Source: an uncultured bacterium (GTDB lineage Bacteria; Omnitrophota; Omnitrophia; Omnitrophales; Abzuiibacteriaceae). From it: a DNA stretch of 64,000 nt. Location: contig CAYLXA010000011.1 in NCBI GenBank assembly GCA_964387845.1, forward strand, positions 1 to 64,000, written 5' to 3'. The position numbers and the translations under genes were made by a program. Position 1 is the stretch's first letter. The number at the start of each line of letters is the position of its first letter. The notes under the pieces were generated by a model. It worked only from the letters and a program-made list of their open reading frames with translations. It did no database searches and had not been told where the DNA came from. This document shows positions 172-55,430 of the stretch, piece after piece.

Positions 172-3100
172 TTGGAAGGAATGTCGAATTATCCTCCGGC
201 AAGAATAATGAGATCACAAATTATTTTCCTCAAAGTTGTCGCCATCACGCTTTGTTTTACATTTTCGGTTACCAGCACAATTGCCTATGGCGATTCGTCT
301 GTCATCATAGAATCTTTCAAGCATAATGCATGGCACGTCACGCCCGCATTTCCGGGGAATAAACCTGCCCAACTCCTTGATTTTGCCCGCAAAGCCGATC
401 TCGTTGTTGCCAGCGGACGTGCGGAGCTTCGTGCAAAAGAGCTGCAAGCTACAAGCCTCAAGCTGCAATCTGATCCGTCCGCGCTGAAAGTCTTGAAGCC
501 TGAAGCTGAAGAATCCCGATCTGAATTGAGGAACGAAGAAGGTGAACTTATGAAACGTCCTCGCGCGCGGCGTGACGCTCGGGAGGACGCCGCTGAGATT
601 GAGCCCGCAGTTGAAACTGAGGCGGTGGTCCAAGCCGAAGACGCTGAAATCAATTACAACCATTTTGCGCAAAGAATTATTAATGAACCGGTGGGGAAAT
701 TGCTGATCGATAAATCTATGGTTGAACAGATCGGCAAGTTAAACGTACCGCAATTCAAACAGATGTTTTATATGGATGTGGGGGCACTCAATGCGTATTT
801 CGTCTTGTATACAATGATCAAGGAAAATCGGGAATTAAATCCGGCTATTCATGACCATATTTTGACGGAAGAAGCAAAGGAAAGGGAAAAAACGGCCGCA
901 GCGGACAAGGCTGTTCAAGCCAAAGCCCAGGAACAAGAAGTTACTGCCCGAGATACAGCTTCAAAAGTGAAGTTGGTTGAGAAAAAGCGGGCAAAGTCTC
1001 AGAAGAAAGAAGCCGGTATAGATACGATTGAACGTGTACAGCTGGCGCCGGTTGAAGCCACAAAATTGACGCAGGGACTTTTTAGGCGGACGTTATCAAA
1101 ATATAAACAGCTCTGGAAACAGATCAGACAAAATAATCTGGATAAGAAGGACCGTGCGTTGGTCATGGCGACAAACATTATGTTGCTGGGCGGCGCTGCT
1201 TTCAGCACGATGCTTTGGGTATCGACTGATTTCGGCAAATATGCCGCGTGGTTTGGATATTTATCAACCGTTTTTTTGAGTGAAGCCGGCCTGCCGCTGT
1301 TTGTTAATTTTGTGGGAACGATCGATGAAATGGTTTTGGATGTGAAGGCAGTCAACGCGACCGAACGATTTATCGAATCACTTGATCGCTTTGAAGAATT
1401 TTTCCGCCGAATGCCGTTAAATCCGATCACGGAAAAAGGTTTGATCAAAGGAATCCGGAGTTTGCCGGCTGAGATTCAGCTTGAGTTGAAGAAAATCTCG
1501 GAAGGCAAAGATTGGGATTACCGGAATCTTGAGAAGTGGTACGAAATCCGAAGAAATCAGGTTATCCGGATTTTGAGAAAAGCGGATCTTGTTATTCCTG
1601 GCGAATTGGAAAATGCGCCGGCTTGGCAGGAGGAGGAAAATGGTGGCAACCCAAGGGTTCATCGCGGCAAACTTCTAAAATTGGTTTCAGAAGCGGTTAA
1701 TGATTCACGCAACGCGAATCGGGTCGAGGAATATCGGAAATGGGCGGAAAAATACAAGAAGGCGCGGACATTATTGCGTAAGATCAAGGGCTTGAATGAA
1801 GAAGAGATGCACTTGCTCGCTGTTCAACTCACCACAACATCGTTTTACGGGCATCCGGAACTTGAAAAACGTCTGGTACGCGCATTCTCGCGTATCGAGA
1901 AACGCCAAAAAAACGCGGATCAGGCGGTCTTTCTTGACCGGGAAGAAGGAAGCAGTTATACATTCAGTGCGCAGGGCCTTGTTGATTACGTGGCCGCGCG
2001 CTTCAGATTATCGGAATCAGACTATGATCTGGAAATTGATCCGGTGCCGCCTGATTTTGTTAATCAGGTCCGCATCCGTTCCGAATTGCGCATCTCATTT
2101 CTTCAAAAACTAGCAATTATCACAACGTTACTGACCGCATTCTTTATCCCGAACACATCAAAAGCTTCGACCATTCCTGTCGGATTTATGCCGCCCATTG
2201 ACAGCGCTTACCTTCATTCAGAAGGCGTCAGAGAAATCCGAGACGATGAAAAAAATGTTTGGCAATATCAAAAATATTCCAACCTCGATATTTTAACCGC
2301 CGCCGCAGTTTTAAATGCGACGAGAGAAAGTCCAAACGCTTCAGTTGATGCTGGTGTGATTGGCGTTTTCAGAAATGAAAGGAAACCGCTTGAGGAGCGG
2401 ATCTTGGCAGCGACCGTTTTAATGCTTAAACAGAAGGATTTTAAGAAAGAAGCGGGTGACTTCCTGGTCAAAATTCTGCATGACGAAACCAAGCCCGGTC
2501 TTGACCGTACGATGGCCGCAGCGGCTTACGCGCGGCTCATTGACGAGTCCTCTCATAAAAAAACACATAAATTTGCTATGGATTATTTGGTACGGGTTCT
2601 TTATGACGCCGACAAGCCTTATGCAGAACGTTTATATGCCGCGTCAGCCTATGCGTTGTTCAAAGCAGGAAGAGATTACATTGACGGGCCTAATTATAAA
2701 ACAACCATTGAATATGCCATGAGCATTCTGGTCAGCGCATTGCATGATGAGGAAGCGCCGGTTTCTCATCGGCTGATTGCCGCTGCTGCTTACGCCGGGC
2801 TTGATGATATGAATTTCGGCGATACGCATGAATATGCTATTCGGTATCTCAAGCAGGTTTATCAAAATCCGAAATCTCAATTTTCAAACCGTGTTACAGC
2901 TGCAGCGGCGCTGCTTGCGGCGGATGAATATGATTCAGAAGACAAATTTCTGGCTCTTATGCTTCGTTTGCCGTCGTTTGATAAAAAAGGAAATGTTGTT
3001 AATGAAAGGACGCCTGTTGATTTGCTTGATGCGATTCAGAACGGTGCGTTAACAGATGCCGGTGCGCATGCGGTAAAAGAGAAATTAAAAACCATACTTG

Positions 3101-12100: not shown

Positions 12101-15100
12101 GCCTGATTCCAACTATCCGTCAAATGGCGCTGACGGAGAAGAACGCGCTCTTAAGATCTCATGCCATTATTTTCTTTCTCGCTCTGTCTTTGCGGTATCC
12201 TCAGTTCAGAGGAAGCCGAAGGACGTTAAAACGCTTAGCGCCCGAATTGGAGCGGTATGTGCTCGAAGGGAAGGATTCCAACATGACTCAAACGGGTATT
12301 TTAGTTCTTGAGCATCTTTGGCGTCAGTTAGACAAAAATCCGGAGCGCTTCGAAACATTTATCAGCCGGTATATTTTCGGAGAAAACCATGCGCCGACCG
12401 GAATTCGGCGTACTGAAACTTATTGGGCGGGCAAATTAGCGCACTCCGAAATCTCGGAAAAGATGCCGACTCTGGACCGGATTCTGGCTAACAATGATCA
12501 GTTATCTCGTTTTCTCACTTTTCTTTCCGTTATGCGGCTTGCTTATCCTTATAGCATGATTAATGGTAGTTATGAGCGCCCGATTGCTTGGGCTAAGAAG
12601 AACCAAAAGATTTTTAAGCTCGACGAGCTCCGCATTGCGTTTGTCAGTGAATCATACCGCCGCCATATTATTTTTACGGAAGACCAAAGTCTTGCACTCG
12701 AAATAAAATTCCCAGGCGAACGCGCTTCAAGCGGCGATGTTTCGAAAATTCACGTGACATTGGCCGAAAAGTTGCGGCAGCAGCCTAAGGGTGAAACGGT
12801 GGTCAGCGAACCACTCTTTTTTATAGGTTTGAAAGGGTTATTCAATCTTTATGGCCCCCGGGAAACCTCGATTGAATATAAAGAATTTCCTTTGGGAATT
12901 GTGGGGTTCCGGTATCAAGACTCGAAACGTTTGCGTAATGTGCTTGAAGATAAAGAATTGTGGCAAGCATTTGTTGAGGAAGCTTATGGGCCATCGGACA
13001 AGTATCAACAAAAGGCCTATGTGCGGATTGCTGCGGATTTAATTATTTTTGCACTCAAGATTCATGAATTGGGTTATCAGGCCAGCACGCGCCGCCTAAC
13101 GGATCTTCACCTTGAAAATTTTGCGCTGTTGCCCGACGGCCACGTTTTTTCCGTGGCTGATTTCGGAATTTATTCCCGTAGCGGCAGCCGTTTAACCAAA
13201 TTCCGTAAAAGAAAAGAAACAAGCGGCCTGCTTGCTGCATTAACGGCTTACAAAAGCAGTCTCATTAGCGCTTGGGACAATCCGACATTTGTCATGGAGG
13301 TCGTTGACGCTGTTTTGGTTAAACTTTTAACAGGCGTTACCGATCCGGCAGAAAGAACAGAAATCATTCTGCGTGTCTTTGGGGAAGTGCGGGATATTTT
13401 TGAAAAAGTCGGCATTTCACCGCTATTCGAGGATGCGCTTGTGCGGGCTTGGGATGTTAATCAAGAGCCGGATGGATATGAAGTCCGTCAAAAAATTGCA
13501 AAATCCATCATTTCCAGATCGGTTATCGCTATTGGAATCGCATCCGATGCGTGGTCTGCGCTTCGATACGACAAAGATCAAGAAAGATTGATTACATCAC
13601 CGCTTCCGGACGATCTTGTGCATCGATTCTGGGATCATCCGGAATTGTTGCAACCGCTAGAACCGGTATTGCTAAGTGATAAAGAAGTTAATCTTCTCGA
13701 TAAAGCTTTCAAGCTTCTGCCTGAAGTGGATCGAAACCAGTTTACGTCGGATCCTAATTCTATGATCGTGTTAATGAAAGGAATGGATGCGCACATTGCA
13801 GAATCAACGATTGATTTCAAAAGATTGACGAACCCGCACGCCTATCACGACTTGGTGTCACCGCGTTTCTTTTTTGACCAGCGGCTGATCAAAGACCCGT
13901 TTGAATTCATGAAAATACTTCACAACGAGATCAAACTGCGGAATGCGATTCTTCAGAGTTTAACCGAAGATGAAATCGCGATGCTAAAAAACCGTCATTT
14001 GCCGGCTGAGCTTCAATCGAAAATCATGAAAAAAACACAGGAAACCAGAGATTTGCAGTGGGACACTTACTTTCGATCAGCCGGAAAGCAAGAACCCAAT
14101 CAAGAACAATTAAGTCTTTTGGAGGACCTTATTGTCTATGGTGCGCAGGATCATTTGCATAAAACATTCGAGTCTCCCGCAGAAGCTTTGTTGGCATTAG
14201 CAAAATCATTAGGAGAATTGAAAGGCGCTCAAAAGAAACGAACTCAAGATTTTCTATTTTACATTCACAACGAAATTTTATCTTTGATTCTGCTCAATCC
14301 AGATGCGGACTTAGATTTAAGAATATCGGCGGTTGTCTATGAGATAGAAAAGGCCAAGTTAGAATCGTTTGCGCTTTTGACTGCCGAGCCATTGGCACGG
14401 CATTTGGAGCGTATCTACGACCGGCATAAAAACGTCCGGCTGCGTGTTGTAATTCTTCGCTTCCTAGCAATTGTTCATGAGCAAGTTGAGCGGGAGATGA
14501 GAGATAATTTAAAGTCAGGGGACAATTTAGTTAAAACTCGTTACGTCGTCGAATCGATTGCCTGGAGGATGGCAGTCGGCGTTTTGAAAAACAATAAAAG
14601 CAAACGTGTCGAAAAGGAGATCGTTAAACTTTTGCTGCAGCTTTTACGGCCTTATGCCGCGGTCTCTCAAAAACCGAATCATGGGCAGTTACGTCTGCTT
14701 CTTGAGGAGGCTGTGATTTACATAAACCAGAATATCGAAAAAGATCCTTCAAAGGAAAAAAACAAGCTGCTTGCCCTGGCAATTTTAAGCAGGCAGATTC
14801 CGATTGCAAGCGACTATTTGGAAGCTGCGCTATTGCGGTATATTTTCGATTCAGATGACATTAAAGGAATACGGATGCGAAAGTCTGGCTATCCGGCGAG
14901 CGATGCTATTCAGCCTTTTGAACAAAGCATGCCCACGCTTATTCAAATATTGAAAAACAAGCAGTATTTAGCGCGTTTCATGGTTGCGCTCAGTATTTTG
15001 CGTGAAGCTTTTCCGTACCACGTCCCCAATTCGCATGATTTTAATGAAGACCTGCTTGAAACCGTAGAAACCAGTGGCGCCGTGCGGCTGAAAGAGCTCT

Positions 15101-18100
15101 TAATCGCGCCGCTTATGCATGAATATTCAAGCCACTTGGTTTCCACAGAGGACGGCCGCAATGTTTTGCGGCTGGTGATTCCGGGCGATTCTGTGCGGCA
15201 TTTTAGTAACCATCTTCGGAAAAATCATGTAGGCAAAAGAAATTTATTATTTTTTATTCCCATCCTCGGCGTCCCATTTTTGTATGGAGCTCTGGATTCC
15301 CATCGACTTTCGGGGTTTGCGGGTTACCGGGAACGCGCCAGTGAAGGTTTGACCATGAAAGAAATCAGAAGGCGTGAAATGATGAATGATCGGATTCCAT
15401 CGTTGGTCAGGACGATCTTGACGCACTTTGGCCAGAAGTATGATGCATCGGCGCTTCATGAAGCATTGGTTCGTCAGGATGTCAATCAGATCACAAAACT
15501 CATCTTCAGCGATGAATATTATCAAGATTTCAAGCAATGGCTGCTCAATTATATGCGGAACGTTTTTCATATGGAAGAAAGCGAAGTTCCGGATGCCTTC
15601 CGGCGTGCTTTAAAACAATACTTTGAGAAGAAAGAATCGCTAGGCCGCACAGAAGCAGCCGTAAAAAAATCAGCAGAAGGAAGCGACGCTCAATCAAAAT
15701 CCCGTTCAGAGCTCAGGGCAGGTGAGTTGTCCGCGGAAGTCCAATTGGCCAATGAGATCACCAAAGCCGTCACAAATTTTGCATTGTGGAAATCATCGGA
15801 ACACAAAATGTCGGTCTCTCGTCAGCAAATGCAAGGCTATAGAGATGCGCATCGGGAAGCGGATGCTTTGGTTAAGGCCGGAATCAAAACTTTGTTACTT
15901 TCCAGGGAAAGGGCAAAGCTCATTCAAGCTCGAACTGCAGTTCAACAGGCTATGAACCAGAGCGGCGTGACGGCAAAGGCAAAGAAAAGATACGAGTTTT
16001 ATATTGGGTTGCTCAATCAAGCCACCGAAAATCGTTCCGTCCCGACTCACAATAAAACGCCGGATCAGACTTCCGTTGAATATCCTCGCAATTCTTCAAT
16101 GAAAGCCAGAGCCGAGTTGCGTTCGAATCAAGCGTATCTTTGGAAATCGAAAATTACATTGGAATTGGCAAGCCCGGCCGGGAAGCCGGACGCTCCTAAA
16201 CGGTATATATTTGAAATAGAAGGCCGCAAATTCATGACGTTCGATGATCCTGATTCGGCCATTGAAATTGTGGGCGAAAGAGCGACCGATCTTGGTGTGC
16301 ACGATCCTTTTCTCAGTATTATGATCACCGAATTGCTGCCGTGGATTTTTGTTGAAAGCTTCAAAAATAGGAGGGTACGCCAACCAGACGGAAATTTTGC
16401 GCTTCAATTTCCGGAACTTGATTCCGGAGAAAAAGATATATTGGAAAGCGAAGTGCAGGTTGCTTTTGGTATTGGGAGTCAGCCGAGTTATGTTGCGTTT
16501 GGCCCCCGATGGTATCGCTTACCCGAGCGCGAATCGATTAATCAGATTGTCAATCAGGCCACCGATAGTTTTGCAGGTGATGATTCAATCGAAAAGCGTG
16601 CAGTGCCGGCTTTGGTGACTTTGGTCAAAGTTTTGAATGACGAAAGCCGAAGCGATGTTGAAACTTACATCGAACAGAAATTTGGTCCGCATGAATTCTT
16701 AAAACGTATGCTGACTTCCGAGAGAGTTACAAAAAACACTTTTTTTGATTTTGTCCGCCGTAATTTATTTTTGGAGCGGATCGGTGAAAAGTGGTTTCCC
16801 TACGGCCTATATACAGATACTAGGCGGTCTGAGCTAAGGCATGATTTTCGCTTTCTCCTAGGAATAGAGCGCGAAGAAGAAATGCAGAAAATCTTCGACA
16901 AGATTAAGCGGGGAGATTCCAACGACATCGAGCAAGCCTTAGGTTCCTTGATTGATTTTATCGGTACGATTCCCAATTTTTTAGATGACCGAAAGTGGGC
17001 GGAATTAAGGAAGTGGATTGCCCGGAATGTGGTTGGCAGCATCAATGTTTCATCTTTTAATACAGCCGGTATTCAAGATTTACTTATCCGTTTTTACAAT
17101 ATCCTGCCGGGCCCTACGACATTGGCTCTGTCTGCTTCGCTGGATGATGAAACCGAATTTGGTGAGCGCATATTTATATTAACTTTCTTATTAGCGGGTA
17201 TTCAAGAATCCGAAAACATAGCAAAGGTTGTATTGCGCAATCGTGTTTTTCAACGAGAAGCAAGCCGGCCAAAAACCGATAATGAAGCCCAGCTTTTTAA
17301 TCAAATTCACCAAGCAATCGATAGAAAAATTAAAGATCAGGCTTCGCCTAGCCCGGCTGCCGGGGAATTATCCGACCCACGATCTGAGCTTCGGATTGCG
17401 TTTACGGATGAGCTTCATCCGGAATTGTTAAGCAGGGAATTTGCAGACGAAAATTCGATCCGAAACAATTTAATAGAGGTTATGAGCGAGCCCAAGACTC
17501 GTGTGGAACTGTTGGGAATTAAAACAGGCGAGTTCATTCAGCGCACGATGGGCAAGATGCAGGTTGTTTTCGAGAAAACCGGCGAACGGGTCGATTCCCT
17601 GACGGGTGAACATGTTATAGAAATCGAATTTAATGTGATTGCGACAAAAGTTCATACCGAGTCCGGAACTATCGAAGCGCGAACGAAACCAAACAGCCGG
17701 TTGTTTGAAGGGCTAAATGCCGGTATCGTGCCGGAAATTAAAATTCGTTTTAACACGGCAATGACGAACGGGATTCGTGCGGTCAATGCGCGCCACGGGG
17801 AAATGGACGAAATTTTCGCTTCTCAAGTTCCGGATTTGGCGAGCGGTTTGGAACGTGTCGGACCCATTGCGGGCCATGATCTTATTTTCGGTGAGGATGG
17901 ATCGCCGCTTTTTGCGGAATATTTTCTTAAAAGATTCGGCGTTCTGGCCGTCGTTACGAGTTCACAAGCTGAAGAAGACTTTTTAGATCCGATCCGGGAT
18001 GACTTACAAAACGGGGAAGTGTTGATTGTCGCTCAAAGTTTTGAAGAAGCGCGCTTGGAACTTAGGAAAAGGGGATTTACGAATCAATTATTGCTTGTTT

Positions 18101-18249
18101 CCGAGTTTGATTTCGTTTCTGATTCGGTTAAGTCACGGGCCTATCAAATGAAAGTCTTCAGCAGGTCTGAAATGCGGCGGTTGCTTTCGGTTGTGGAAGA
18201 GGCAGCCATTCAAATCCGTTCGGAGCTCCGGACAGCCGTTTCGGCGTAA
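172..18249 (+). CDS. giant multi-domain membrane protein (6025 aa): N-terminal signal/TM, HEAT-like repeat arrays, acyl-CoA dehydrogenase-like domain, alpha/beta-hydrolase domain, APH/kinase-like motif, multiple TM clusters; recurrent SRSELR motif
   Basis: Single uninterrupted ORF from the six-frame track. Domain-level similarity in one frame throughout: ACAD motifs (PEEFGGSGLS, LNGTKRFITN, FEGMNDV), hydrolase GYSMG nucleophile elbow, HEAT-like AAAAYA repeats. The likely true start is ATG at 181, preceded by GGAAGGA; the TTG at 172 is the track start. A hydrophobic N-terminus (IIFLKVVAITLCFTFSVTSTIAYG) suggests a signal peptide or anchor. Stop is TAA at 18247-18249. Confidence 0.8.
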   Translation: MEGMSNYPPARIMRSQIIFLKVVAITLCFTFSVTSTIAYGDSSVIIESFKHNAWHVTPAFPGNKPAQLLDFARKADLVVASGRAELRAKELQATSLKLQSDPSALKVLKPEAEESRSELRNEEGELMKRPRARRDAREDAAEIEPAVETEAVVQAEDAEINYNHFAQRIINEPVGKLLIDKSMVEQIGKLNVPQFKQMFYMDVGALNAYFVLYTMIKENRELNPAIHDHILTEEAKEREKTAAADKAVQAKAQEQEVTARDTASKVKLVEKKRAKSQKKEAGIDTIERVQLAPVEATKLTQGLFRRTLSKYKQLWKQIRQNNLDKKDRALVMATNIMLLGGAAFSTMLWVSTDFGKYAAWFGYLSTVFLSEAGLPLFVNFVGTIDEMVLDVKAVNATERFIESLDRFEEFFRRMPLNPITEKGLIKGIRSLPAEIQLELKKISEGKDWDYRNLEKWYEIRRNQVIRILRKADLVIPGELENAPAWQEEENGGNPRVHRGKLLKLVSEAVNDSRNANRVEEYRKWAEKYKKARTLLRKIKGLNEEEMHLLAVQLTTTSFYGHPELEKRLVRAFSRIEKRQKNADQAVFLDREEGSSYTFSAQGLVDYVAARFRLSESDYDLEIDPVPPDFVNQVRIRSELRISFLQKLAIITTLLTAFFIPNTSKASTIPVGFMPPIDSAYLHSEGVREIRDDEKNVWQYQKYSNLDILTAAAVLNATRESPNASVDAGVIGVFRNERKPLEERILAATVLMLKQKDFKKEAGDFLVKILHDETKPGLDRTMAAAAYARLIDESSHKKTHKFAMDYLVRVLYDADKPYAERLYAASAYALFKAGRDYIDGPNYKTTIEYAMSILVSALHDEEAPVSHRLIAAAAYAGLDDMNFGDTHEYAIRYLKQVYQNPKSQFSNRVTAAAALLAADEYDSEDKFLALMLRLPSFDKKGNVVNERTPVDLLDAIQNGALTDAGAHAVKEKLKTILDEGRLNHDVGLLVRYAEVLENPTAVDFAEIVKLVSAVLPDEENRLEFWFDIAKKVQDPEKFNFNSYVLKNLLTDPVLDPAQVPDQEIMEFLIKNHPDQELRKQLKVRMKESQWQMVKGTQVVYLALVFMVGVGISIQQMKARRRSELRSILIELWNSVQTIARDPIYGPSYAICFGLMAYMVIKFGPRRGSFFPGSSRNIERMIRAKFKNASPSDLDQARTIVKELRDKIEKNLERPHFEIRYVLPAIIQSANSVEQLRKFVESLGVWKDAGWFDRLIGGVLPLSLVGRLGEAPLLVGNPYEKPAIEKAMKGIARAIQSSDEFREGFETVVIFFEKLKQATARKKYFRNESIISPQVAWEELLQKAHQIRMQHGDFTVSFQPEEREIINNRYTDKVLQHQVISVNEPSVASARSVPTHNKMPGTSIDGKVGTAQTSDENSSGSSMKVRAELRQASSRMRAKQERLFTERAASRRIARIDRWFQHYHDDYDMNWNPEFFASKHETFLDRIKTQLRDFEIENEAIDIAIEQSMSILIAGVPGGIIRAFLKRFTNMVHRHIYGPVAVEEINDRMRHFKERIDRSLESAASLDERRRLMKGYRLKHGYLWIDNVRTSFEELPVDHSTASTVKVIGPREMKIHQIAGYFENILHRKRGLLTDQKDHEILKFLVGRLTDSDPWVVKAAVWGINRIADRMDPVLKQFILERYYEILSGNHSEVARGSIARSIREVFNPQSLDVALEMLKTEQTEWVQTYLVEVIQTIVSQSDKKSLRYKHSRDIIEQLLEKAVGDPDAKRSHIMLRVGSIKALAELLWYDPEVLDRLKEMVLTEPDSTIQEAAMWALARLHVATPEGMAQIDSLLETLTAYLESSHAGRKNVFLEQYARQLLFWLQRLSSNRDLKAKILSMKRTNPDFSLTEKIILGALNQIEKYTKRLKLLEHANWIFELFQSAIFRRARSGSARTLTAYHDRLKAQAKRDAVYFSGRAMNPVILLDIDAILPKEGDEAAKASESDHVFDILKSFMDRGWSVVATDRYREERDAAHFNVAQGAEMKLKSKVLRQAIKFLASNRPIRIPSKDWSRGKRHQRMSGLLVPVPDEPIVVLVHGPELWMVKDIMPGTFSGIVSVGDYKDASNGVYLDKLIDAIEKKANGRIVQREPSRSELRHGPEDFVRDETARMVRELVGTFYKKSVYPFAHEIDKGNIRIEDQILEEAAQAGLFGLAIPEEFGGSGLSPILKIIADIIGWYINPSVALSIGVHNSVVKGPIQDYGTEEQKKKYLTKLASGELIGGYALTELEAGSQALSKRFPLQTTAVPVEVDGKQYYKLNGTKRFITNARFAGVFVGFAMLGDERRVFIIDRDLEGVSVGEDEQKSGLKGSSTADLILQDVLVPAENLIPGDGIKIGMSTMSQGRLSIAASALGGSMRIFDDTLEYSKLRKQFGGPIWQFGGVKQTLAEMAADLYAQESVVYAVASLLTEGKVNAAFESAVAKVFVTEKFNHIAQKGVKTHGGAGYISDTPTARIGQDAIVTEIFEGMNDVLYSNVIAALYLKKLMTEGNQVLNISDYGQFYPEIQKLSSLIGQTGKVILGKFGTLTPENQDEYMAFGKMASEFYAIVSAVRRTRKITSEINPDDPKLKHFLDVTRLVVARGTKRIRDEASHFVDPDVFGVSSDQRKYFELTRGIAEHLVVNPPKRIVEFNASNESQSSRAELRLDPVYLVDLTVFGLLAILPSWFALKLTTERYAKRTIDQLYSPAVQEEMDANRSFNVNFLTFFYDRAVHWVRFLVISFLHGFSAWVASYYAFAMYYPAASIFWPLVAAAAAFGASGVSLWIRDKKQVRQKITVAAQIPAKQIHGKFELNFDLVFGFDLRELLDGKTGEEQALQNLRAKVEEQVERIAANKGAVPAEVGKVLVPVTPESFASTGPNFKVEGLRGQFTVRIPRSNINTMHSFPLNVTSVYLGGQKIAVGTVFFEKNKDARSELRSEGAAKSAFSNFLASVPEDSEKWKSFLREQLALFAAEWVKLPGELQNFFPEETHLFQEFTADNIPAVNLDNFFKLAAVRDAVVDFMPKLNQSSSLPQNAEAVQIPGFNGALLDGWVIRAADSKQENHPAFLILPPWGDDISKYGKLAELLHQEFPSFHVIGLDYTKDPNLETILNTGGIAESFDIEAVIRALSRFSDLKIDPSKITGIGYSMGANTLAILQKRTGLLSHFVPIGLHDSYASVLAGYYENVHIPRIARIVTRRGYSFIDWTDPMIREHAKRLLIEARLRMNQFTIARREIPVKPEDDPFLDLAETASSLQIPVHFVFEEESDLLQESVRDFYRALAGQMNESGRTAQYNTYPGKHNKIDPASLVSDLKTFLTSRSELTSARAEPKTISASSQSAMMSELRKQNHFILFVAGSILFWAGCLMTEQKPVSEMPAETPIEQIAETSEPVTNAPADDISEPAEIQKQPRAPPKSEFETLLEALETGNDDERWDAAKTLSRSANSAASGTFLKALQDSNSLVRREAIIFFRYHHDPRAPKVLIELYRKELDLGIRSDIVETLGILQSAEAVSFLIQRIKREDGAAFYVLKRALVRIGVQAIEPLIDAIRFEYNKELAAKYEETLREIFRNPDAAEQRKKAEKHWYEAVRRAALGITSRSELRKFHEPKPQASGVDAGIYIEGLEKVIRANRFSALRYDRTKKRWVMTSILIDGKKRKGLLLSRKQLDGVNLAFSTLHQKLQKEMTEKSNARIIFVKGLMPILGNHMPWVQRPAGLSGFSKPDFILDRNAAYNPLALLDQFEYEIRRKRLMAGQFSPAEKRELIRNPNTFDLRVKFKQVYLEAHAQLIQDNVINSRDELSFYDSTQRTRLLELVILQAAQEATQVRYRSVENALKALDEAAKDGNHSGHQVAIGILALHASDIAARLIKKSDNESIKIAALDYIASALIDQDTASPAIEITGGLHHEIRNILTNSKNPRLKAAALQLFTVLIYVQLVDSNEKLNALEYHYANLELVIRSLIPTIRQMALTEKNALLRSHAIIFFLALSLRYPQFRGSRRTLKRLAPELERYVLEGKDSNMTQTGILVLEHLWRQLDKNPERFETFISRYIFGENHAPTGIRRTETYWAGKLAHSEISEKMPTLDRILANNDQLSRFLTFLSVMRLAYPYSMINGSYERPIAWAKKNQKIFKLDELRIAFVSESYRRHIIFTEDQSLALEIKFPGERASSGDVSKIHVTLAEKLRQQPKGETVVSEPLFFIGLKGLFNLYGPRETSIEYKEFPLGIVGFRYQDSKRLRNVLEDKELWQAFVEEAYGPSDKYQQKAYVRIAADLIIFALKIHELGYQASTRRLTDLHLENFALLPDGHVFSVADFGIYSRSGSRLTKFRKRKETSGLLAALTAYKSSLISAWDNPTFVMEVVDAVLVKLLTGVTDPAERTEIILRVFGEVRDIFEKVGISPLFEDALVRAWDVNQEPDGYEVRQKIAKSIISRSVIAIGIASDAWSALRYDKDQERLITSPLPDDLVHRFWDHPELLQPLEPVLLSDKEVNLLDKAFKLLPEVDRNQFTSDPNSMIVLMKGMDAHIAESTIDFKRLTNPHAYHDLVSPRFFFDQRLIKDPFEFMKILHNEIKLRNAILQSLTEDEIAMLKNRHLPAELQSKIMKKTQETRDLQWDTYFRSAGKQEPNQEQLSLLEDLIVYGAQDHLHKTFESPAEALLALAKSLGELKGAQKKRTQDFLFYIHNEILSLILLNPDADLDLRISAVVYEIEKAKLESFALLTAEPLARHLERIYDRHKNVRLRVVILRFLAIVHEQVEREMRDNLKSGDNLVKTRYVVESIAWRMAVGVLKNNKSKRVEKEIVKLLLQLLRPYAAVSQKPNHGQLRLLLEEAVIYINQNIEKDPSKEKNKLLALAILSRQIPIASDYLEAALLRYIFDSDDIKGIRMRKSGYPASDAIQPFEQSMPTLIQILKNKQYLARFMVALSILREAFPYHVPNSHDFNEDLLETVETSGAVRLKELLIAPLMHEYSSHLVSTEDGRNVLRLVIPGDSVRHFSNHLRKNHVGKRNLLFFIPILGVPFLYGALDSHRLSGFAGYRERASEGLTMKEIRRREMMNDRIPSLVRTILTHFGQKYDASALHEALVRQDVNQITKLIFSDEYYQDFKQWLLNYMRNVFHMEESEVPDAFRRALKQYFEKKESLGRTEAAVKKSAEGSDAQSKSRSELRAGELSAEVQLANEITKAVTNFALWKSSEHKMSVSRQQMQGYRDAHREADALVKAGIKTLLLSRERAKLIQARTAVQQAMNQSGVTAKAKKRYEFYIGLLNQATENRSVPTHNKTPDQTSVEYPRNSSMKARAELRSNQAYLWKSKITLELASPAGKPDAPKRYIFEIEGRKFMTFDDPDSAIEIVGERATDLGVHDPFLSIMITELLPWIFVESFKNRRVRQPDGNFALQFPELDSGEKDILESEVQVAFGIGSQPSYVAFGPRWYRLPERESINQIVNQATDSFAGDDSIEKRAVPALVTLVKVLNDESRSDVETYIEQKFGPHEFLKRMLTSERVTKNTFFDFVRRNLFLERIGEKWFPYGLYTDTRRSELRHDFRFLLGIEREEEMQKIFDKIKRGDSNDIEQALGSLIDFIGTIPNFLDDRKWAELRKWIARNVVGSINVSSFNTAGIQDLLIRFYNILPGPTTLALSASLDDETEFGERIFILTFLLAGIQESENIAKVVLRNRVFQREASRPKTDNEAQLFNQIHQAIDRKIKDQASPSPAAGELSDPRSELRIAFTDELHPELLSREFADENSIRNNLIEVMSEPKTRVELLGIKTGEFIQRTMGKMQVVFEKTGERVDSLTGEHVIEIEFNVIATKVHTESGTIEARTKPNSRLFEGLNAGIVPEIKIRFNTAMTNGIRAVNARHGEMDEIFASQVPDLASGLERVGPIAGHDLIFGEDGSPLFAEYFLKRFGVLAVVTSSQAEEDFLDPIRDDLQNGEVLIVAQSFEEARLELRKRGFTNQLLLVSEFDFVSDSVKSRAYQMKVFSRSEMRRLLSVVEEAAIQIRSELRTAVSA
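2395..2950 (+). other. tandem ~47-aa HEAT/ARM-like repeats (motif R..AAAAYA.L.D....YA..YL..VL.D...P, 4-5 copies) inside giant ORF
   Basis: Repeated protein motifs AAAAYARL / AASAYALF / AAAAYAGL / TAAAALLAAD at regular ~46-47 aa spacing in the translation. Confidence 0.5.
4336..4455 (+). repeat. intragenic direct repeat copy 1 (encodes SVPTHNKMP...SSMKVRAELR) in giant ORF
   Basis: About 90% nucleotide identity to 16034-16122 over ~90 nt (cgttccgtcccRactcacaataaaaYgccgg ... cagacttccgWtgaa ... ttcttcaatgaaagYcagRgccgaRttgcg). Copy 1 has a ~30-nt insertion. Confidence 0.75.
6655..7745 (+). other. acyl-CoA dehydrogenase (ACAD)-like domain embedded in giant ORF
   Basis: The translated segment KSVYPFAHEIDKG...FEGMNDV carries canonical ACAD N-, middle- and C-domain motifs: GLFGLAIPEEFGGSGL, GGYALTELEAGSQ, LNGTKRFITNA, GGAGYISD, FEGMNDV. 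It begins directly after SRSELR copy 4. Confidence 0.75.
9350..10140 (+). other. alpha/beta-hydrolase fold domain (serine hydrolase, GYSMG nucleophile elbow at 9661-9675) embedded in giant ORF
   Basis: HPAFLILPPWGDD...HVIGLDY...GIGYSMGANTLAIL... followed later by Asp/His candidates (HFVFEEESD..., PGKHNK). Typical order of an a/b hydrolase with a G-X-S-X-G motif. Confidence 0.6.
10500..10870 (+). other. PBS-lyase/HEAT-like repeat module in giant ORF
   Basis: ERWDAAKTLSRS...LVRREAIIFF...PKVLIELY...IRSDIVETLGIL...AVSFLIQRI resembles E-Z type HEAT repeats. Confidence 0.4.
12990..13180 (+). other. protein-kinase-like (APH/LPS-kinase/ELK superfamily) catalytic-loop + DFG motif in giant ORF
   Basis: ...ADLIIFALKIHELGYQASTRRLTDLHLENFALLPDGHVFSVADFGIY. 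DLHLEN (13102-13119) matches the HGDLHPGN/HRDLKPEN catalytic loop (D...N). ADFG (13156-13167) matches the DFG metal-binding motif at canonical spacing. Confidence 0.4.
16034..16122 (+). repeat. intragenic direct repeat copy 2 (encodes SVPTHNKTP...SSMKARAELR) in giant ORF
   Basis: See copy 1 at 4336-4455. Near-identical nucleotide stretch despite otherwise unrelated flanking sequence. Confidence 0.75.
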
Positions 18250-18254
18250 GATTA

Positions 18255-18332
18255 GTGGTAAGTGGTAAGTTGTAAGTAGTAAGTGATAAGCAATTCGAAT
18301 AACTTAAAACTTACCACTTATCACTTACAACT
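18255..18332. terminator. heptamer-tandem inverted-repeat hairpin (gtggtaa gtggtaa gttgtaa gtagtaa gtgataa ... cttaccacttatcacttacaac) between convergent genes; probable bidirectional terminator/structured element
   Basis: Five tandem GTNNTAA heptamers at 18255-18290, a ~20-nt loop, then the reverse-complementary degenerate heptamers at 18310-18332. It lies 6 nt after the giant ORF stop and 5 nt before the stop of the convergent minus-strand gene. Confidence 0.55.
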
Positions 18333-18336
18333 GAGA

Positions 18337-18666
18337 TTACCGACGCGCTTCAACTGCAGTCAATCGATTGGCAATAACGCCAATATTTTCAGTCAATTCA
18401 CTGCGTGTGTCTTTCAAGTCTTTTGTGAGTTTCAAAAGCCCATCTTCAAGTCTAACGACTTTACTTTTTACGACATCAATGCCTAACTCTACCAAGTCTA
18501 AACGGCGATTAACGCCATGGAGCTCCGTTTCGACATTGGCTAGCCGCCTGTCTGTTGATACTTGGCTTTCGGCAATGAGATTGATTTTTTGATCCATCGA
18601 CTCGAGCAAAGTACCCACTTCAGTGACGGTGAACTTATCTGATTTAATAGCTTTTTCTTTTTTCAT
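18337..18666 (-). CDS. small coiled-coil hypothetical protein (109 aa)
   Basis: ORF with a strong SD (RC of 18670-18684 gives AAAGAGGAGAATGTT-ATG). Heptad-rich sequence consistent with coiled coil. Contains TRSELT, resembling the giant-protein motif. Confidence 0.55.
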   Translation of the reverse strand: MKKEKAIKSDKFTVTEVGTLLESMDQKINLIAESQVSTDRRLANVETELHGVNRRLDLVELGIDVVKSKVVRLEDGLLKLTKDLKDTRSELTENIGVIANRLTAVEARR

Positions 18667-18917
18667 AACATTCTCCTCTTTGGTTTGGCGTGGAGGAGAG
18701 GAGAGGTTTATAACAGAAAAGCCGGGCTATGTCAATGAAGTAAATATAGAAATATAAAAATTAATATGATTAATATTTATTTTTAATCCTGGACGGCCTT
18801 GCGCAACAAATTTCGTGCTTTTTTTGTCAATTTTAGGTAAAATAACTTCTCTTTCGGCTTCCCCTGATAGTTTCGTATGGGTTATGTCTCAGTAGTTTGT
18901 GCGGTTTTTTAATTGAT

Positions 18918-18976
18918 AAATTCAAAATTCAAATATCAAATCTCAAAATTTTGAATTTTTAATTTTGAAATTTGAG
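18918..18976. repeat. left arm of ~55-bp perfect inverted repeat flanking permease gene
   Basis: The reverse complement of 18918-18976 (…ttcaaaattcaaatatcaaatctcaaaattttgaatttttaattttgaaatttgag) matches 19905-19960 essentially perfectly. Confidence 0.8.
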
Positions 18977-18994
18977 TTTACGGTCATTAATTAC

Positions 18995-19897: not shown

Positions 19898-19900
19898 CGC

Positions 19901-19962
19901 AAATTCAAATTTCAAAATTAAAAATTCAAAATTTTGAGATTTGATATTTGAATTTTGAAATT
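19901..19962. repeat. right arm of ~55-bp perfect inverted repeat (intergenic between the two permease genes)
   Basis: Reverse complement of the 18918-18976 arm. Confidence 0.8.
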
Positions 19963-19967
19963 AAATT

Positions 19968-20849
19968 ATGAAATCAAAAGACTCCGCAAGGCATCAGCTG
20001 ACGGCTCGCAAAAAGAAGCCGCTGACGATTAAGGACCTCGGGATTTATATCGTGCTGATCATTGGCGCGATTACGATGGTGGCGCCTTTTCTGTGGATGA
20101 TCACGACATCGCTCAAAAATCCGGGCGATGTGTTTTCCTACAAGAAAATTTGGTGGCACGACTGGGTGCCGATGTCGTTTGTGTGGCGCAATTATATTGA
20201 AGCGTGGAATGTCGTGCCGTTTGCGCGCTTCTATTTAAATTCGATTTTGGTTGTTTTGCTGACCACATTCGGGCAGGTGGCGACGAGCGCGATGGCGGCT
20301 TATGCATTTGCGCGTCTCCAATTTCCCGGGCGCAATCAAATCTTTTTTTCCTATTTGGCAACCATGATGATCCCGGGTGCCGTCACGATGATCCCGGTTT
20401 TTATTTTGCTGCGTCAGCTCGGATGGATTGATACGTACAAGGCCATGATCTTGCCCGGCATTTTTACGGCGTACGGAACTTTCATGCTCCGGCAATTTTT
20501 CCTGACGCTGCCGAAAGACCTGGAAGATGCGGCGATGATTGACGGCTGTTCTTATTTTGGAATTTTCTGGCGGATTTTGCTCCCGCTTTCGCAGCCGGCA
20601 CTCGCAACGCTGACGATTTTTACGTTCATGGGCTCCTGGATGAATTTCATGTGGCCTTTGATCGTCATGAATTCCGAAGAAAAATTTCCGCTGCCGGTGG
20701 GCTTGGCGTATTTCCAAAGCTTGCACCATACGGATTGGACATTGTTGATGGCAGGTTCTGTGATGATGATTCTGCCGATTCTGCTTGTCTTCATGTTCGG
20801 CCAGCGCTATTTCGTGGAAGGTATTAAGCTGACGGGAATTAAAGGTTGA
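19968..20849 (+). CDS. sugar ABC transporter permease (MalG/UgpE-type)
   Basis: 293-aa ORF with 6 predicted TM segments and an EAA loop (EDAAMIDGCSYFGIFWRILLP). Confidence 0.85.
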   Translation: MKSKDSARHQLTARKKKPLTIKDLGIYIVLIIGAITMVAPFLWMITTSLKNPGDVFSYKKIWWHDWVPMSFVWRNYIEAWNVVPFARFYLNSILVVLLTTFGQVATSAMAAYAFARLQFPGRNQIFFSYLATMMIPGAVTMIPVFILLRQLGWIDTYKAMILPGIFTAYGTFMLRQFFLTLPKDLEDAAMIDGCSYFGIFWRILLPLSQPALATLTIFTFMGSWMNFMWPLIVMNSEEKFPLPVGLAYFQSLHHTDWTLLMAGSVMMILPILLVFMFGQRYFVEGIKLTGIKG

Positions 20850-39193: not shown

Positions 39194-39220
39194 TTCGGTT
39201 AACTGAAGTTACAAAATTTA

Positions 39221-46642: not shown

Positions 46643-46647
46643 AGACA

Positions 46648-46778
46648 CAGTATCTAGTATCTCGTATCTAGTATCTAGTTGAACTTATTATTATATGAAT
46701 AGATATTGTTTCTTTCACGTTTTCCTTCCGTTCAATTCTTTACTAGATACTAGATACCAGATACAAGATACGAGATAC
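46648..46778. repeat. large imperfect palindromic element built from tandem GTATCT-N heptamers (arm 46648-46678; inverted arm 46743-46778)
   Basis: Arm agtatct agtatct cgtatct agtatct; inverted arm actagat actagat accagat acaagat acgagat. Same architecture as 18255-18332 and 55337-55414. Confidence 0.6.
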
Positions 46779-46787
46779 GGAAATAAC

Positions 46788-46861: not shown

Positions 46862-46865
46862 ATTT

Positions 46866-46958
46866 GATTTCGGATTGTGGAGTGCAGATTGAGAGAATAG
46901 ATTGATGATTGTTGATTCCGAAATCCGAAATTAACAATCCGAAATTGTATAATTTGTT
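46866..46958. repeat. inter-tRNA inverted repeat with tandem TCCGAAA heptamers (gatttcggattg ... caatccgaaatt)
   Basis: atttcggattg at 46866-46877 pairs with caatccgaaat at 46934-46945. Tandem tccgaaa tccgaaa ttaacaa tccgaaa. Confidence 0.45.
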
Positions 46959-55336: not shown

Positions 55337-55414
55337 GCTTCAAGCTACAAGACTCAAGCTTCAGGCTTCAAGATAGTGCGTTTCTGCTTGTAGCTTGTAG
55401 CCTGTAGCTTGCAG
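55337..55414. terminator. heptamer-tandem inverted-repeat hairpin (cttcaag ctacaag actcaag cttcagg cttcaag … cttgtag cttgtag cctgtag cttgcag) immediately after the leuS stop
   Basis: Same architecture as 18255-18332 and 46648-46778; 13-nt loop. Confidence 0.55.
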
Positions 55415-55430
55415 TTTGAAATTTGAAACT

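Follow-up and report, generated by a model that had tools for sequence, protein, structure and literature searches.

In a published summary of earlier work, heptanucleotide repeats are given as the most abundant class of long simple sequence repeats in most prokaryotic genomes, and polymerase slippage is proposed as their source (PMC4679880). The heptamers of cyanobacteria and Beggiatoaceae (TAACTGA) occur in 2-6 copies, mostly in intergenic regions and often before start codons, and regulatory roles have at most been suggested for them (PMC4679880; bioRxiv 10.1101/2022.06.06.494920). A Beggiatoaceae genome was found to hold 169 direct sets against 1 inverted set (PMC4679880), and in Nostoc 7120, deletion of TTCAAAA/TTTTGAA altered the activity of a reporter (bioRxiv 10.1101/2022.06.06.494920). 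Geobacter metallireducens carries 4-5 tandem octa- or heptanucleotides (e.g. MTYCTGA x5), which are mostly paired and are drawn as looping back on the opposite strand. Classes 1-4, which are multicopy in each genome, are annotated as putative binding sites of global regulators, and the GGACCGG x4 family lies within and between genes (PMC2700814). Both the paired Geobacter arrays and the upstream heptamers of Nostoc have been interpreted as protein-binding arrays (PMC2700814; bioRxiv 10.1101/2022.06.06.494920). In E. coli K1, heptanucleotide repeats in the 5' coding region form the neuO switch (PMC13001214, PMC3046976).

Heptamers that pair with each other are known from the P6b stem of the Nostoc trnL(UAA) group I intron. 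Units of Class I (TDNGATT) or Class II (NNTGAGT) build stems of 50-126 nt with stabilities of -0.27 to -0.46 kcal/mol per nt, stem length shifts by whole 7-nt units, sometimes on one side, and the region has repeatedly been replaced by the other class (PMC4476775, PMC3488679). Palindromes also define the REP family, as imperfect extragenic elements (PMC3733652). Template switching during replication can create and maintain hairpins (PMC8794818), and a single such event can write a perfect complementary arm and later re-homogenise the arms (PMC8794818, PMC13100816).

Here, we describe a 64-kb stretch of DNA from an uncultured member of the Omnitrophota (the window), whose elements are hairpin-forming palindromes in gene spacers, with both arms made of runs of a 7-base unit. 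As in Nostoc P6b, both sides of the stem are degenerate heptamers that pair. However, the P6b stem lies within the self-splicing intron of one gene, whereas the window elements occupy spacers of protein and tRNA genes and one coding region, with at least five different units. The elements are a known kind of repeat DNA, with precedents in cyanobacteria and Geobacter, present here as a version scattered over the gene spacers of an Omnitrophota genome.

Results

Heptamer-repeat palindromes in the window

A first-pass annotation of the window had listed four intergenic elements sharing one design, namely tandem degenerate 7-mers, a loop and inverted 7-mers. The family is real, with all four sites present at their coordinates, but the listing was an under-count. 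Seven elements (E0 to E6) were found, each with 4-5 degenerate tandem heptamers followed by inverted heptamers, and the three members not listed before lie at 440-512, 18910-18982 and 19898-19968. The repeat unit had been held to differ in each element, which is correct only in part: GCTNCAA is common to 440-512 and 55337-55414, and the elements at 18910-18982 and 19898-19968 are reverse complements of each other. The post-stop position that was thought to be shared applies to some elements but not to all members.

Nine period-7 arrays were detected in the window, compared to a mean of 0.06 and a maximum of 1 in 100 block shuffles, which excludes a chance origin; other periods from 5 to 12 gave 0-1 arrays each. 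In 2.25 Mb of related loci, period 7 gave 18 inverted pairs and each other period from 5 to 12 gave 0-1, and a looser scan of Omnitrophota-like loci yielded 24 against 1-3 for other periods. The longest inverted repeats of the window are the arms of the elements. Autocorrelation peaked at lag 7 in every arm, generally at 0.72-0.90, with lower lag-7 identity in the tRNA-spacer element E5 (0.56-0.57) and in one arm of E0 (0.50). TRF reported 3.7-5.4 copies per arm with unit matches of 72-91%, i.e. the units are degenerate, having 5-6 conserved and 1-2 free positions. The unit types (AGTGGTA, AGTATCT, GCTTCAA, AAATTCA and TCCGAAA) amount to at least five unrelated units in 64 kb. Elements measure 70-130 nt, with stabilities of -0.23 to -0.37 kcal/mol per nt. 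E2 matches E3, and E0 and E6 have a common unit; otherwise, the elements have no sequence, length or termini in common.

Six of the seven window elements are intergenic, in sequence that is ~91% ORF-covered by crude greedy ORF calls. The same holds for at least 17 of 24 elements in related loci, a count that rests on equally crude ORF-based calls: several hairpins scored as 'CDS' are intergenic in the gene calls of databases (e.g. L003 10576). An assembly artefact was rejected, as the elements recur in independent assemblies and at orthologous loci; those behind frr and leuS are unchanged in independent assemblies (L001, L170), and another independent assembly (L167) has the 18910 element with a single difference in 73 bases.

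Elements at the giant ORF

E0 (440..512), identified by TRF and in the sequence itself, is an in-frame heptamer hairpin within a giant ORF of 6025 codons, ~80-105 codons past its signal-peptide-like N-terminus. The left arm is AGCTGCA x4.7 (440-472), and the inverted arm (~489-512) reads CTTGAAG, CCTGAAG, CTGAAG. Lag-7 autocorrelation of the two arms was 0.74 and 0.50, and E0 forms the weakest hairpin (-18.2 kcal/mol, sense strand). Its unit family is that of E6, with E0-E6 local alignment scores of 26-29 in both orientations. To see whether E0 is an insertion, the first 360 residues of the giant ORF were used in a homologue search, which found no homologue.

E1 (18254..18332) was delineated by TRF, folding and an inverted-repeat search, and consists of arms at 18254-18291 and 18301-18332 with AGTGGTA-type units, i.e. 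NNTAAGT (by TRF, x5.3 over 18254-18290 in the left arm and x4.6 in the right arm). It occupies the 87-nt spacer between the stop codons of two convergent ORFs, namely the giant ORF (stop at 18249) and a 109-aa coiled-coil ORF on the minus strand (18337-18666), for which searches returned nothing beyond weak coiled-coil matches. The predicted fold (18245-18340) has a free energy of -36.2 kcal/mol (z = -7.2). Both E1 and the 109-aa ORF appear to be missing in L086, where the corresponding spacer is ~40 nt; judging from a weak match, the first 126 nt of L086 may be the end of the orthologous giant ORF.

Conversion between the elements at the ABC permease genes

E2 (18910..18982; TRF and folding) is a near-perfect, AT-rich palindrome of AAATTCA/TGAATTT units that ends 13 nt upstream of the ATG of ABC permease 1 (18996). 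E3 (19898..19968) is a palindrome that takes up all of the sequence from the stop of permease 1 (19897) to the ATG of permease 2 (19968). When inverted, 18921-18975 of E2 matches the core of E3 (19905-19959) exactly (55 nt, 100%), and overall, 71/73 positions are identical between E2 and inverted E3, the copies lying 1 kb apart in opposite orientation. Both elements are missing in L086, whose permease 2 is 93% identical as a protein, and E3 is missing in ~33 other relatives as well. L167 is 94.5% identical to the window overall and has E2 with 72/73 bases identical, and together with L168 carries a different heptamer hairpin at the permease 1/2 junction. At this junction, each of three lineages (the window, L167/L168 and L151) has a heptamer hairpin of its own.

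In a three-way alignment, E3 is a mosaic, with L167-like flanks and an E2-like core. On this alignment, E3 is a conversion tract within an older hairpin like that of L167/L168, and because E2 is 72/73 identical in L167, copying ran from E2 to E3. Both elements are flanked by TTAA, which also occurs at the unoccupied site of L086 (TTAA-ACTT-ATG); a TTAA target duplication was considered for E2 and E3 and given less weight in view of the alignment that places the conversion tract in an older hairpin. A promoter upstream of E2 was also considered. The block at ~18805-18845, conserved in L086, looked promoter-like, but its hexamer spacing does not suit sigma-70, and no promoter is assigned there.

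A retained element behind frr

E4 (46649..46778), found by TRF, folding and inverted repeats, lies between the frr stop (46642) and tRNA-Lys (46788). Its arms (46649-46681, AGTATCT x4.4 over 46649-46679; 46741-46778, AGATACN x5.4) enclose a loop of 59 nt, and the fold of 46640-46785 reaches -44.3 kcal/mol (z = -6.3). Orthologous hairpins with CGTATCT-type units in other copy numbers are present in L002, L003, L171 and L173/L174, and E4 is missing in L175. Position, palindromy and the (C/A)GTATYT unit family are kept across relatives with 73-91% frr identity, and pairing is preserved though the unit changes from A to C. These comparisons single out E4 as the one old element among the window members. 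Its retention would not be predicted by pure mutational churn and hints at a function for at least one member.

E5 (46866..46950), between tRNA-Lys and tRNA-Glu, is a degenerate member. Its left arm is NNNGATT-like, the right arm reads TCCGAAA, TCCGAAA, TTAACAA, TCCGAAA, and TRF reported only a short period-7 array (46917-46931, TCCGAAA x2.1). The fold of 46860-46962 has -23.8 kcal/mol (z = -2.9). Heptamers at this site are clearer in the orthologous spacer of L003 (lag-7 identity 0.70), and L002 has hairpins here that are unrelated to E5.

The leuS-GH35 junction and the SurE site

E6 (55337..55430) takes up the leuS-GH35 spacer, which runs from the stop of leuS (55329) to the ATG of GH35 (55431). 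The arms are 55337-55372 (GCTTCAA x5.1) and 55386-55414 (GCTTGTA x3.7 over 55386-55411), and behind them lie two units of TTTGAAA (55415-55430). The fold of 55325-55420 has -33.7 kcal/mol (z = -2.25), and 6/200 shuffles were equally stable. E6 is identical in L170, an independent assembly, altered in L002 and missing in L003, where the junction is TAAATG; in at least 12 further relatives the leuS-GH35 junction is abutting or overlapping and has no E6. A duplication of ATGC at the leuS insertion was examined and gave no clean fit, with extra bases between the stop and the first ATGC. An exact look-up of the leuS protein returned no record. Behind SurE, the hairpin is complete in L002 but reduced to a remnant of two units in the window, and L003 has different palindromes at this site.

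Turnover, placement and occurrence in other genomes

E2, E3 and E6 are missing in close relatives, as apparently is E1, and copy numbers and unit variants of E4 and E6 differ from those of orthologues in L002, L003, L171 and L173. Judging from these comparisons, element turnover is fast. The first-pass annotation had mentioned slippage as a possible origin, which gains support from differences by whole 7-nt copies, presence or absence, and replacement of hairpins among relatives.

It had also placed the family immediately downstream of genes and suggested a scan for enrichment at 3' ends. Across 1.03 Mb of Omnitrophota-like loci, the heptamer hairpins located between genes were distributed over co-directional, convergent and divergent junctions as 12:3:2, and all junctions as 728:99:89, so that the elements occur in proportion to the junctions available. 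The enrichment is therefore intergenic and not specific to 3' ends. At co-directional junctions, most elements begin 0-7 nt past the stop and leave 4-19 nt to the following start codon. The members between convergent genes are E1, the sole one in the window, and L002 13940-14010.

The heptamer architecture also occurs in Nitrospira loci, where each arm belongs to the 5' end of one of two divergent genes, so that they are on separate transcripts, and the arms flank a conserved divergent promoter core. Both arms share one unit within a genome, and the unit differs between genomes. Certain unit families recur: besides the window, NNTAAGT is present in L009, L126 and L151, and GCNNCAA in L002 and L114, and TGAGT-type units are found in Nitrospira, L127 and L130. 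TGAGT-type units make up 19% of arrays compared to 1% of random 7-mers, but as many of these arrays are orthologous Nitrospira sites, they were not treated as independent evidence. Recurrence of units in unrelated genomes and sites could, on sequence comparison, point to a sequence-specific partner instead of neutral slippage.

Comparison with intrinsic terminators

The elements had been suggested to be an unusual class of terminator or RNA structure. They resemble intrinsic terminators in that a hairpin often follows soon after a stop codon, but in those the stem is short (about 5-15 pairs) and rich in GC, the loop is small (3-8 nt) and a U-tract follows. Stems of the window elements are AT-rich and 20-45 pairs long, with loops of 0-59 nt. 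Scans for a stem plus T-run listed no element, and none of the elements had at least 5 T in the 8 bases past the stem on either strand. A textbook canonical terminator with T7 is present elsewhere in the window (39219-39246). Positions are equally unsuited to the ends of transcription units, with E0 in an ORF, E2 before a start codon, E3 between permeases, E5 between tRNAs, and E6 between genes that in relatives abut or overlap. Members thus sit where termination would be harmful or meaningless. With no U-tract, long AT-rich stems and such positions, the terminator reading finds no support, and the elements do not look like canonical intrinsic terminators or a new terminator class.

No consistent difference in MFE or G-U count was seen between sense and antisense strands in this small sample, and hence no signature of selection at the RNA level was found. 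The lack of strand asymmetry in folds and G-U pairs, together with the location of the Nitrospira arms on different transcripts, indicates a DNA-level property. A search of the whole window against Rfam 15 at the gathering score returned four tRNAs, no match to an element and no intron.

Discussion

Relation to described repeat families

The window elements are like Nostoc P6b stems in size, stability, unit-wise variation and whole-element replacement (E3). The units of E5, also in L003, resemble NNNGATT, and that of E1 (NNTAAGT) is one mismatch from NNTGAGT; E2, E3, E4 and E6 do not fit the P6b motifs. Arrays in L127, L130 and Nitrospira are TGAGT-type, and the Nitrospira cases are orthologous. 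Like STRR-type repeats, the elements have at least three head-to-tail 7-nt copies, are mainly non-coding and vary in copy number among relatives, and the E2/E3 unit TTCAAAA/TTTTGAA is that of the Nostoc PCC 7120 repeats. However, the repeats of cyanobacteria and Beggiatoaceae are nearly all direct and use one genome-wide unit, whereas here the inverted partner is near-universal and units are site-specific. The classical STRR units that Mazel and colleagues described in 1990 are reportedly CCCCAGT, TTGGTCA and CAACAGT, and these are absent among the window units. We lean slightly towards regarding the elements as STRR-like simple-sequence arrays, in which a degenerate 7-nt run is followed by an inverted run.

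In Geobacter, each class has one consensus in 15-49 copies, whereas small unit families are found here within 64 kb; function is putative in both. The elements share with REP/BIME sequences their nature as spacer-confined palindromes, often post-stop and in operons, dispensable and variable among strains. REP sequences, however, are 20-40 nt long, with one sequence per genome, a GTAG or CGTC tag, a link to RAYT and no 7-nt periodicity, and the window elements are 70-130 nt long and mostly unlike one another, without a single consensus. The terminal GTAG/CGTC tag was not found in the elements, the GTAG of E6 being part of its repeated unit. Template-switch hairpins agree with the block-wise co-variation of arms, and with E3 having received an inverted copy of E2, but the published ones are not built of tandem heptamers.

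A proposed replication-level origin

The account that we hold to be slightly more likely than not is that the arrays arise by slippage, and that the arms are produced by template switching or conversion, which also preserves their match. Slipped-strand mispairing would generate an array and alter its copy number by whole 7-nt steps; the differences in copy number are observed, and slippage is the cause that we infer for them. Fold-back template switching would then write the complementary arm and maintain the match, and elements with similar units would overwrite each other by ectopic conversion. One overwriting event (E2 to E3) is seen in the alignments, and the molecular route proposed for it is conjectural. 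Purifying selection would finally spare elements where harm is small, i.e. in gaps between stop and start codons and in an occasional tolerant in-frame coding stretch. The flush appearance with stop codons would arise because selection leaves only the few bases between stop and start in a genome with ~91% in ORFs. Once transcribed, the elements would form AT-rich hairpins of 20-45 pairs without a U-tract, and any effects on mRNA (a barrier to 3' exonucleases, a substrate for RNase III or uncoupling of cistrons) are probably a by-product, to which the frr-tRNA-Lys element E4, possibly co-opted, may be an exception. Long palindromes are usually unstable in bacteria. Persistence of the elements may need explaining in this light, which counts against an account based on slippage and template switching.

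Alternative explanations

RNA stem-loops of REP/BIME elements can stabilise upstream mRNA, and the window elements may act likewise, blocking 3'-5' exonucleases or being cut by RNase III, and thus serve as terminators without a U-tract, 3'-end stabilisers or processing sites that tune expression of neighbouring genes. Such a role is conceivable but not very probable for the family. It would account for the stability of the folds (between -0.23 and -0.37 kcal/mol per nt), for the start of most elements a few nt past a stop codon, for the two members between convergent genes (E1; L002 13940-14010) and for the retention of E4 behind frr (73-91% frr identity), with pairing intact as the unit changes from A to C. 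Yet the U-tract is absent and terminator scans gave no match, the genome uses a canonical terminator elsewhere in the window (39219-39246), and members are found before a start codon (E2), between co-transcribed permeases (E3), in an ORF (E0) and at the E6 junction. Most members are dispensable, being absent in close relatives, convergent junctions are not enriched, stability and G-U pairs have no sense-strand bias, the Nitrospira arms belong to separate transcripts, and no Rfam family matches. Movement in trans by a transposase encoded elsewhere, as for MITE-like or REP-like elements whose arrays are transposase-binding sites, is unlikely. The near-identical copies E2 and E3 (the one such pair in 64 kb), 1 kb apart in opposite orientation and bracketed by TTAA, the empty L086 site (TTAA-ACTT-ATG), insertions that appear clean against empty sites of relatives, and the recurrence of unit families at non-orthologous sites are all compatible with transposition. 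However, E3 is a conversion tract in an older hairpin without a duplicated target, and TTAA is expected to be frequent beside TAA stops in AT-rich spacers. The elements have no common termini, length or sequence, the leuS insertion has no clean target duplication, the SurE site displays growth and decay in place, and a Pfam scan of the ~38 window proteins found no transposase or RAYT.

The degenerate units, with 5-6 conserved and 1-2 free positions, resemble binding sites, and each heptamer could be bound by one subunit of a regulator, nucleoid or cold-shock-type protein, the inversion serving dimers or looping. Unit families that recur across genomes, the identity of the E2/E3 heptamer TTCAAAA/TTTTGAA with that found upstream of start codons in Nostoc 7120, the annotation of paired tandem heptamers and octamers in Geobacter as putative sites of global regulators (PMC2700814), and the Nitrospira arms that bracket a conserved divergent promoter core are in keeping with this. 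We nevertheless consider it quite improbable, as several proteins would be required for at least five unrelated units in 64 kb, close relatives do without the elements, their neighbours are unrelated housekeeping genes for which common regulation is not expected, and an experimental partner is known in none of the cited systems. Least probable, and by our estimate very far from likely, are contingency loci for phase variation, in which gain or loss of 7-nt units switches expression through a frameshift at E0 or through altered leader spacing or structure at E2 and E3. Seven is not a multiple of 3, E0 lies early in a 6025-codon ORF with a signal-peptide-like start, and neuO is a precedent for a heptanucleotide switch. 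But degenerate units (72-91% matches) lower slippage, most elements are non-coding palindromes for which the reading frame is irrelevant, and the inverted arm has no role in such a model.

Implications

If the account of slippage and template switching is right, mutation rather than selection builds long, regular RNA and DNA hairpins in one or a few steps and swaps them between sites, which bears on the origin of terminators, processing sites and small structured RNAs. The 7-nt periodicity and similar units across phyla could be rooted in some conserved feature of the replisome or a single-strand-binding protein. A more speculative extension, which we put forward with considerable reserve, is that Omnitrophota, Nitrospirota, Cyanobacteria and Geobacter share a widespread, self-renewing DNA element, written into spacers and gene starts by a replication-level process. 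That process would, just as tentatively, consist of slippage by 7 nt and fold-back template switching, together with conversion among elements whose units are similar; the small set of preferred units (NNTGAGT/NNTAAGT-, NNNGATT- and TTCAAAA-like) would be due to a conserved molecular partner or to the footprint of a polymerase, which is again a doubtful proposition. Were all this true, the elements would be a source of RNA hairpins, N-terminal peptide extensions and promoter-flanking cruciforms for co-option, which may have happened after frr.

For the question of terminators the outcome is mostly deflationary: no new class of terminator emerges, and the architecture has already been published elsewhere. 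The elements may be mistaken for terminators or regulatory RNAs during annotation. They also affect assembly: two Logan contigs stop inside elements, which break short-read assemblies.

Heptamer hairpins in the window

The first-pass annotation listed four sites in the window at which degenerate tandem 7-mers are followed by the same run inverted. All four were present as described when analysed by TRF, an inverted-repeat search and folding, and the family proved to be wider, with seven members (E0 to E6). E1 (18254-18332) is the whole spacer that separates a giant ORF from a 109-aa ORF convergent with it, with period-7 arrays at 18254-18290 and 18301-18332; E4 (46649-46778) runs from the frr stop to tRNA-Lys (arrays 46649-46679 and 46741-46778); the degenerate E5 (46866-46950) lies between tRNA-Lys and tRNA-Glu, with a short array at 46917-46931; and E6 (55337-55430) is the whole spacer from the leuS stop to the GH35 ATG (arrays 55337-55372 and 55386-55411). 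Their arms are the longest inverted repeats of the window, and the folds reached -36.2 (E1, z = -7.2), -44.3 (E4, z = -6.3), -23.8 (E5, z = -2.9) and -33.7 kcal/mol (E6, z = -2.25). TRF and the sequence revealed three elements that had been overlooked: E0 (440-512), in frame within the coding sequence of the giant ORF; E2 (18910-18982), ending 13 nt 5' of the ABC permease 1 start codon; and E3 (19898-19968), the whole spacer from the permease 1 stop to the permease 2 ATG. The giant ORF itself (172-18249, 6025 codons) begins with a signal-peptide-like segment; a search of 5.8 billion clustered proteins detected no homologue of its first 360 residues.

The heptamer arrays exceed chance and are specific to seven. 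In every arm, autocorrelation peaked at lags 7 and 14, generally at 0.72-0.90 (0.56-0.57 in E5). At a threshold of at least four copies and at least 75%, the window contained nine period-7 arrays, against a mean of 0.06 and a maximum of 1 in 100 block shuffles, and 0-1 arrays of other periods. The same criteria applied to 2.25 Mb of fetched loci gave 18 inverted-pair arrays at period 7 and 0-1 for each other period from 5 to 12. A looser detector gave 24 at period 7 against 1-3 at periods 6, 8 and 9 in 1.03 Mb of Omnitrophota-like loci, and 21 against 2-9 in 1.19 Mb of mostly Nitrospira loci. Element density in the window was about five times the average of its relatives.

An assembly artefact was ruled out, since the E4 and E6 regions are unchanged in independent assemblies (L001, L170) and 72 of 73 bases of E2 are identical in L167, a relative of 94.5% identity. 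The palindromes do fragment short-read assemblies: among Logan contigs from the source samples, position 1 of L166 (window 19934) falls within E3, and both ends of L169 fall within elements (E1 and E3). The DNA is from an uncultured member of Candidatus Omnitrophota: the top frr relatives carry Omnitrophica/Omnitrophota MAG annotations, and among GTDB representative genomes an Omnitrophica MAG has the nearest leuS (74% identity).

Turnover and copying of elements

E2 and E3 are one sequence in opposite orientations (71/73 bases, with a 55-nt core at 100%). The relatives L167 and L168 have E2, and at the E3 site carry a different 88-nt heptamer hairpin (AAATNCC/TTGGAAN units, -23.9 kcal/mol). 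In a three-way alignment, the flanks of window E3 matched this older hairpin and its core the reverse complement of E2, which marks the core as an ectopic conversion or template-switch tract. This pattern speaks against an insertion of E3 with target duplication. In L151, a third lineage, the site holds a further hairpin, of NNTAAGT-like units; at the permease 1/2 junction the hairpin architecture recurs as its sequence is replaced.

Elements also came and went among relatives. L003/L086 (JGI contig Ga0268299_1000056), a single close relative whose frr is 87% and whose permease 2 protein is 93% identical, is without E2, E3 and E6; L086 also appears to be without E1 and the adjacent 109-aa ORF, the upstream alignment being weak. 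That coiled-coil ORF (18337-18666, minus strand) has no family match and has the look of a small insertion of recent date. In L002 (91% frr identity), E6 differs in its unit variants and copy number. Downstream of SurE, a full AAAGTTA/AAATTCA hairpin in L002 contrasts with just a two-unit remnant in the window and unrelated palindromes in L003; the latter, two GC-rich sequences (gtcatctccgcgcaggcggagatc and gattcccgctaaaagcgtgcgggaatgac) filling the spacer at 16195-16262, look REP-like.

E4 is the exception to this turnover. After frr, a hairpin of (C/A)GTATYT units is shared by L002, L003, L171 (75% frr identity) and L173/L174 (73%); each arm has 1.5 to 5 units, and the loops have diverged. 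L175 (69%) lacks it. The tRNA-Ala/tRNA-Leu pair lies on the opposite strand in L002 (14370-14550) compared with the window (52470-52681) and L003, the sign of a small inversion at this locus between close relatives. Partial tRNA duplications were seen in two loci: L003 has a second tRNA-Glu 3' end downstream of a terminator-like hairpin (10960-11100), and L174 a 75-nt tandem duplication including the tRNA-Lys 5' end (1960-2090), absent from L173 despite identical frr proteins.

Position between genes

The window genes beside the elements are ordinary housekeeping genes. At co-directional junctions in related loci, most intergenic hairpins start 0-7 nt after the stop and leave 4-19 nt to the next start; they constitute the spacer itself and are not something placed inside it. 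Enrichment at gene 3' ends, which the first-pass annotation had suggested looking for, was not found: hairpins were split 12:3:2 between co-directional, convergent and divergent junctions, against 728:99:89 for all junctions. The elements are therefore concentrated in non-coding DNA (about 9% of the sequence by crude ORF calls), not at 3' ends.

The proposal that the elements are terminators was likewise unsupported. They have long, AT-rich stems, followed in no case by a T-run on either strand, and a stem-plus-T-run scan of the window picked up none of them. Canonical terminators are in use in this organism: the top-ranked hit of the scan, an internal control, was a textbook intrinsic terminator (39219-39246; 12-pair stem, 8 G-C, T7) separating glnB (P-II) from the convergent lpxB. 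In at least 12 other Omnitrophota-like genomes leuS and GH35 abut or overlap, and the permease 1/2 junction has only a few bases in nearly all of about 35 relatives; a strong terminator at either junction would be harmful.

Heptamer arrays as a DNA-level property

Folded as RNA, the sense and antisense strands of the elements were equally stable, with no strand bias in their G-U pairs. Nitrospira/Nitrospiraceae loci (L024-L085), fetched as leuS neighbours, bear on the same question. About 3.5-4 kb upstream of leuS, they share a conserved divergent promoter core (GGACCGTAnCACAGG..TTTnnnnAAAGACAAC ... TATACT; e.g. L036 2462-2653, L050 7051-7246, L038 1-191, L051 8442-8618) between a putative GTPase-like gene (VAIIGRPNVG motif only) and a putative HAD-like gene (DDVLLDMDGT motif). 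By our reading of the flanks, in some 11 of 38 loci the 5' coding end of each gene carries a heptamer array, the two in inverted orientation, and several more loci have one arm only. Both arms of a genome use one unit, which changes from genome to genome (AGGGGTA, GGTGAGG, GTGCTGA, GTGATGA and others); in about nine loci the complementarity of the arms was clearly above background. In arrayless species the HAD-like gene starts with ATGACTCAGCAC, a single copy of the unit expanded in others. As the two arms belong to separate transcripts, their match cannot be explained by an RNA hairpin; the heptamer architecture is a property of the DNA.

At or just after the Nitrospira leuS stop we also observed GAGTGCT repeated 3-3.4 times (L040 12424-12462, L051 12439-12469, L056 5328-5366, L073, L076, L081, L085), with CTCAGCA(C) copies about 60 nt downstream beside the next start codon. 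A junction of the E6 kind therefore has a heptamer hairpin of its own in Nitrospira.

Precedents and origin

The architecture has precedents. The P6b stem of the Nostoc trnL intron (50-126 nt, -0.27 to -0.46 kcal/mol per nt), whose two sides consist of degenerate heptamers, changes in steps of whole 7-nt units and has repeatedly had its entire region replaced (PMC4476775; PMC3488679). In Geobacter metallireducens, tandem heptamer and octamer arrays lie in pairs, both within genes and between them (PMC2700814). Heptanucleotide repeats are reported to outnumber other long simple-sequence repeats in most prokaryotic genomes, and polymerase slippage has been proposed for them (summarised in PMC4679880). 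Our literature search, incomplete in coverage, turned up no description of such elements for Omnitrophota or Nitrospira. What is new is the phylum, the intergenic rather than intronic setting and the direct evidence of element-to-element copying. Unit families recur across unrelated sites and genomes (window E1 and E5; L009 9318-9421, L126 11241-11324, L151, L127 2534-2603, L130 3181-3241) and resemble the two Nostoc intron motifs (NNTAAGT/ATTGAGT and NNTGAGT; NNNGATT and TDNGATT), shared ancestry being unaccounted for. The preference for 7 nt and for similar units across phyla is the part most worth pursuing.

On balance we favour, by a modest degree, an origin in which slippage would build the arrays, fold-back template switching would write the inverted arm and keep the arms matched, conversion between similar elements would contribute to both, and elements would survive only where selection tolerates them. 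Replication template switching is an established route to creating and re-homogenising hairpin arms (PMC8794818, PMC13100816). The analysis directly demonstrates period specificity, turnover, unit-wise length change and one conversion event, and that terminator features and strand bias are lacking; from this we infer the slippage and template-switching steps and that the elements have no dedicated function. The slippage-generated element that the first-pass annotation had offered as one option is supported.

REP-like functional RNA hairpins, for which the old E4 is the best case, seem unlikely, the two strands folding equally well. We give still less credence to MITE-like elements mobilised in trans; no transposase was found among about 38 window proteins scanned. 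Arrays that bind protein are less probable again; in their favour, E2 and E3 share their unit with the TTTTGAA/TTCAAAA repeats of Nostoc 7120, which lie 5' of start codons and affect reporter expression (bioRxiv 10.1101/2022.06.06.494920). Phase-variation switches are the least plausible.

A different structure, a GC-rich 27-pair hairpin that is not heptamer-built and has no T-run, lies between tRNA-Leu and leuS (52719-52785). It had no Rfam match and is conserved in L003 (about 16877-16937) with both sides changed in pairs (gcccctgaat/attcaggggc and gtccctgagt/actcagggac), and might serve leuS or the tRNA operon as a leader or processing structure.
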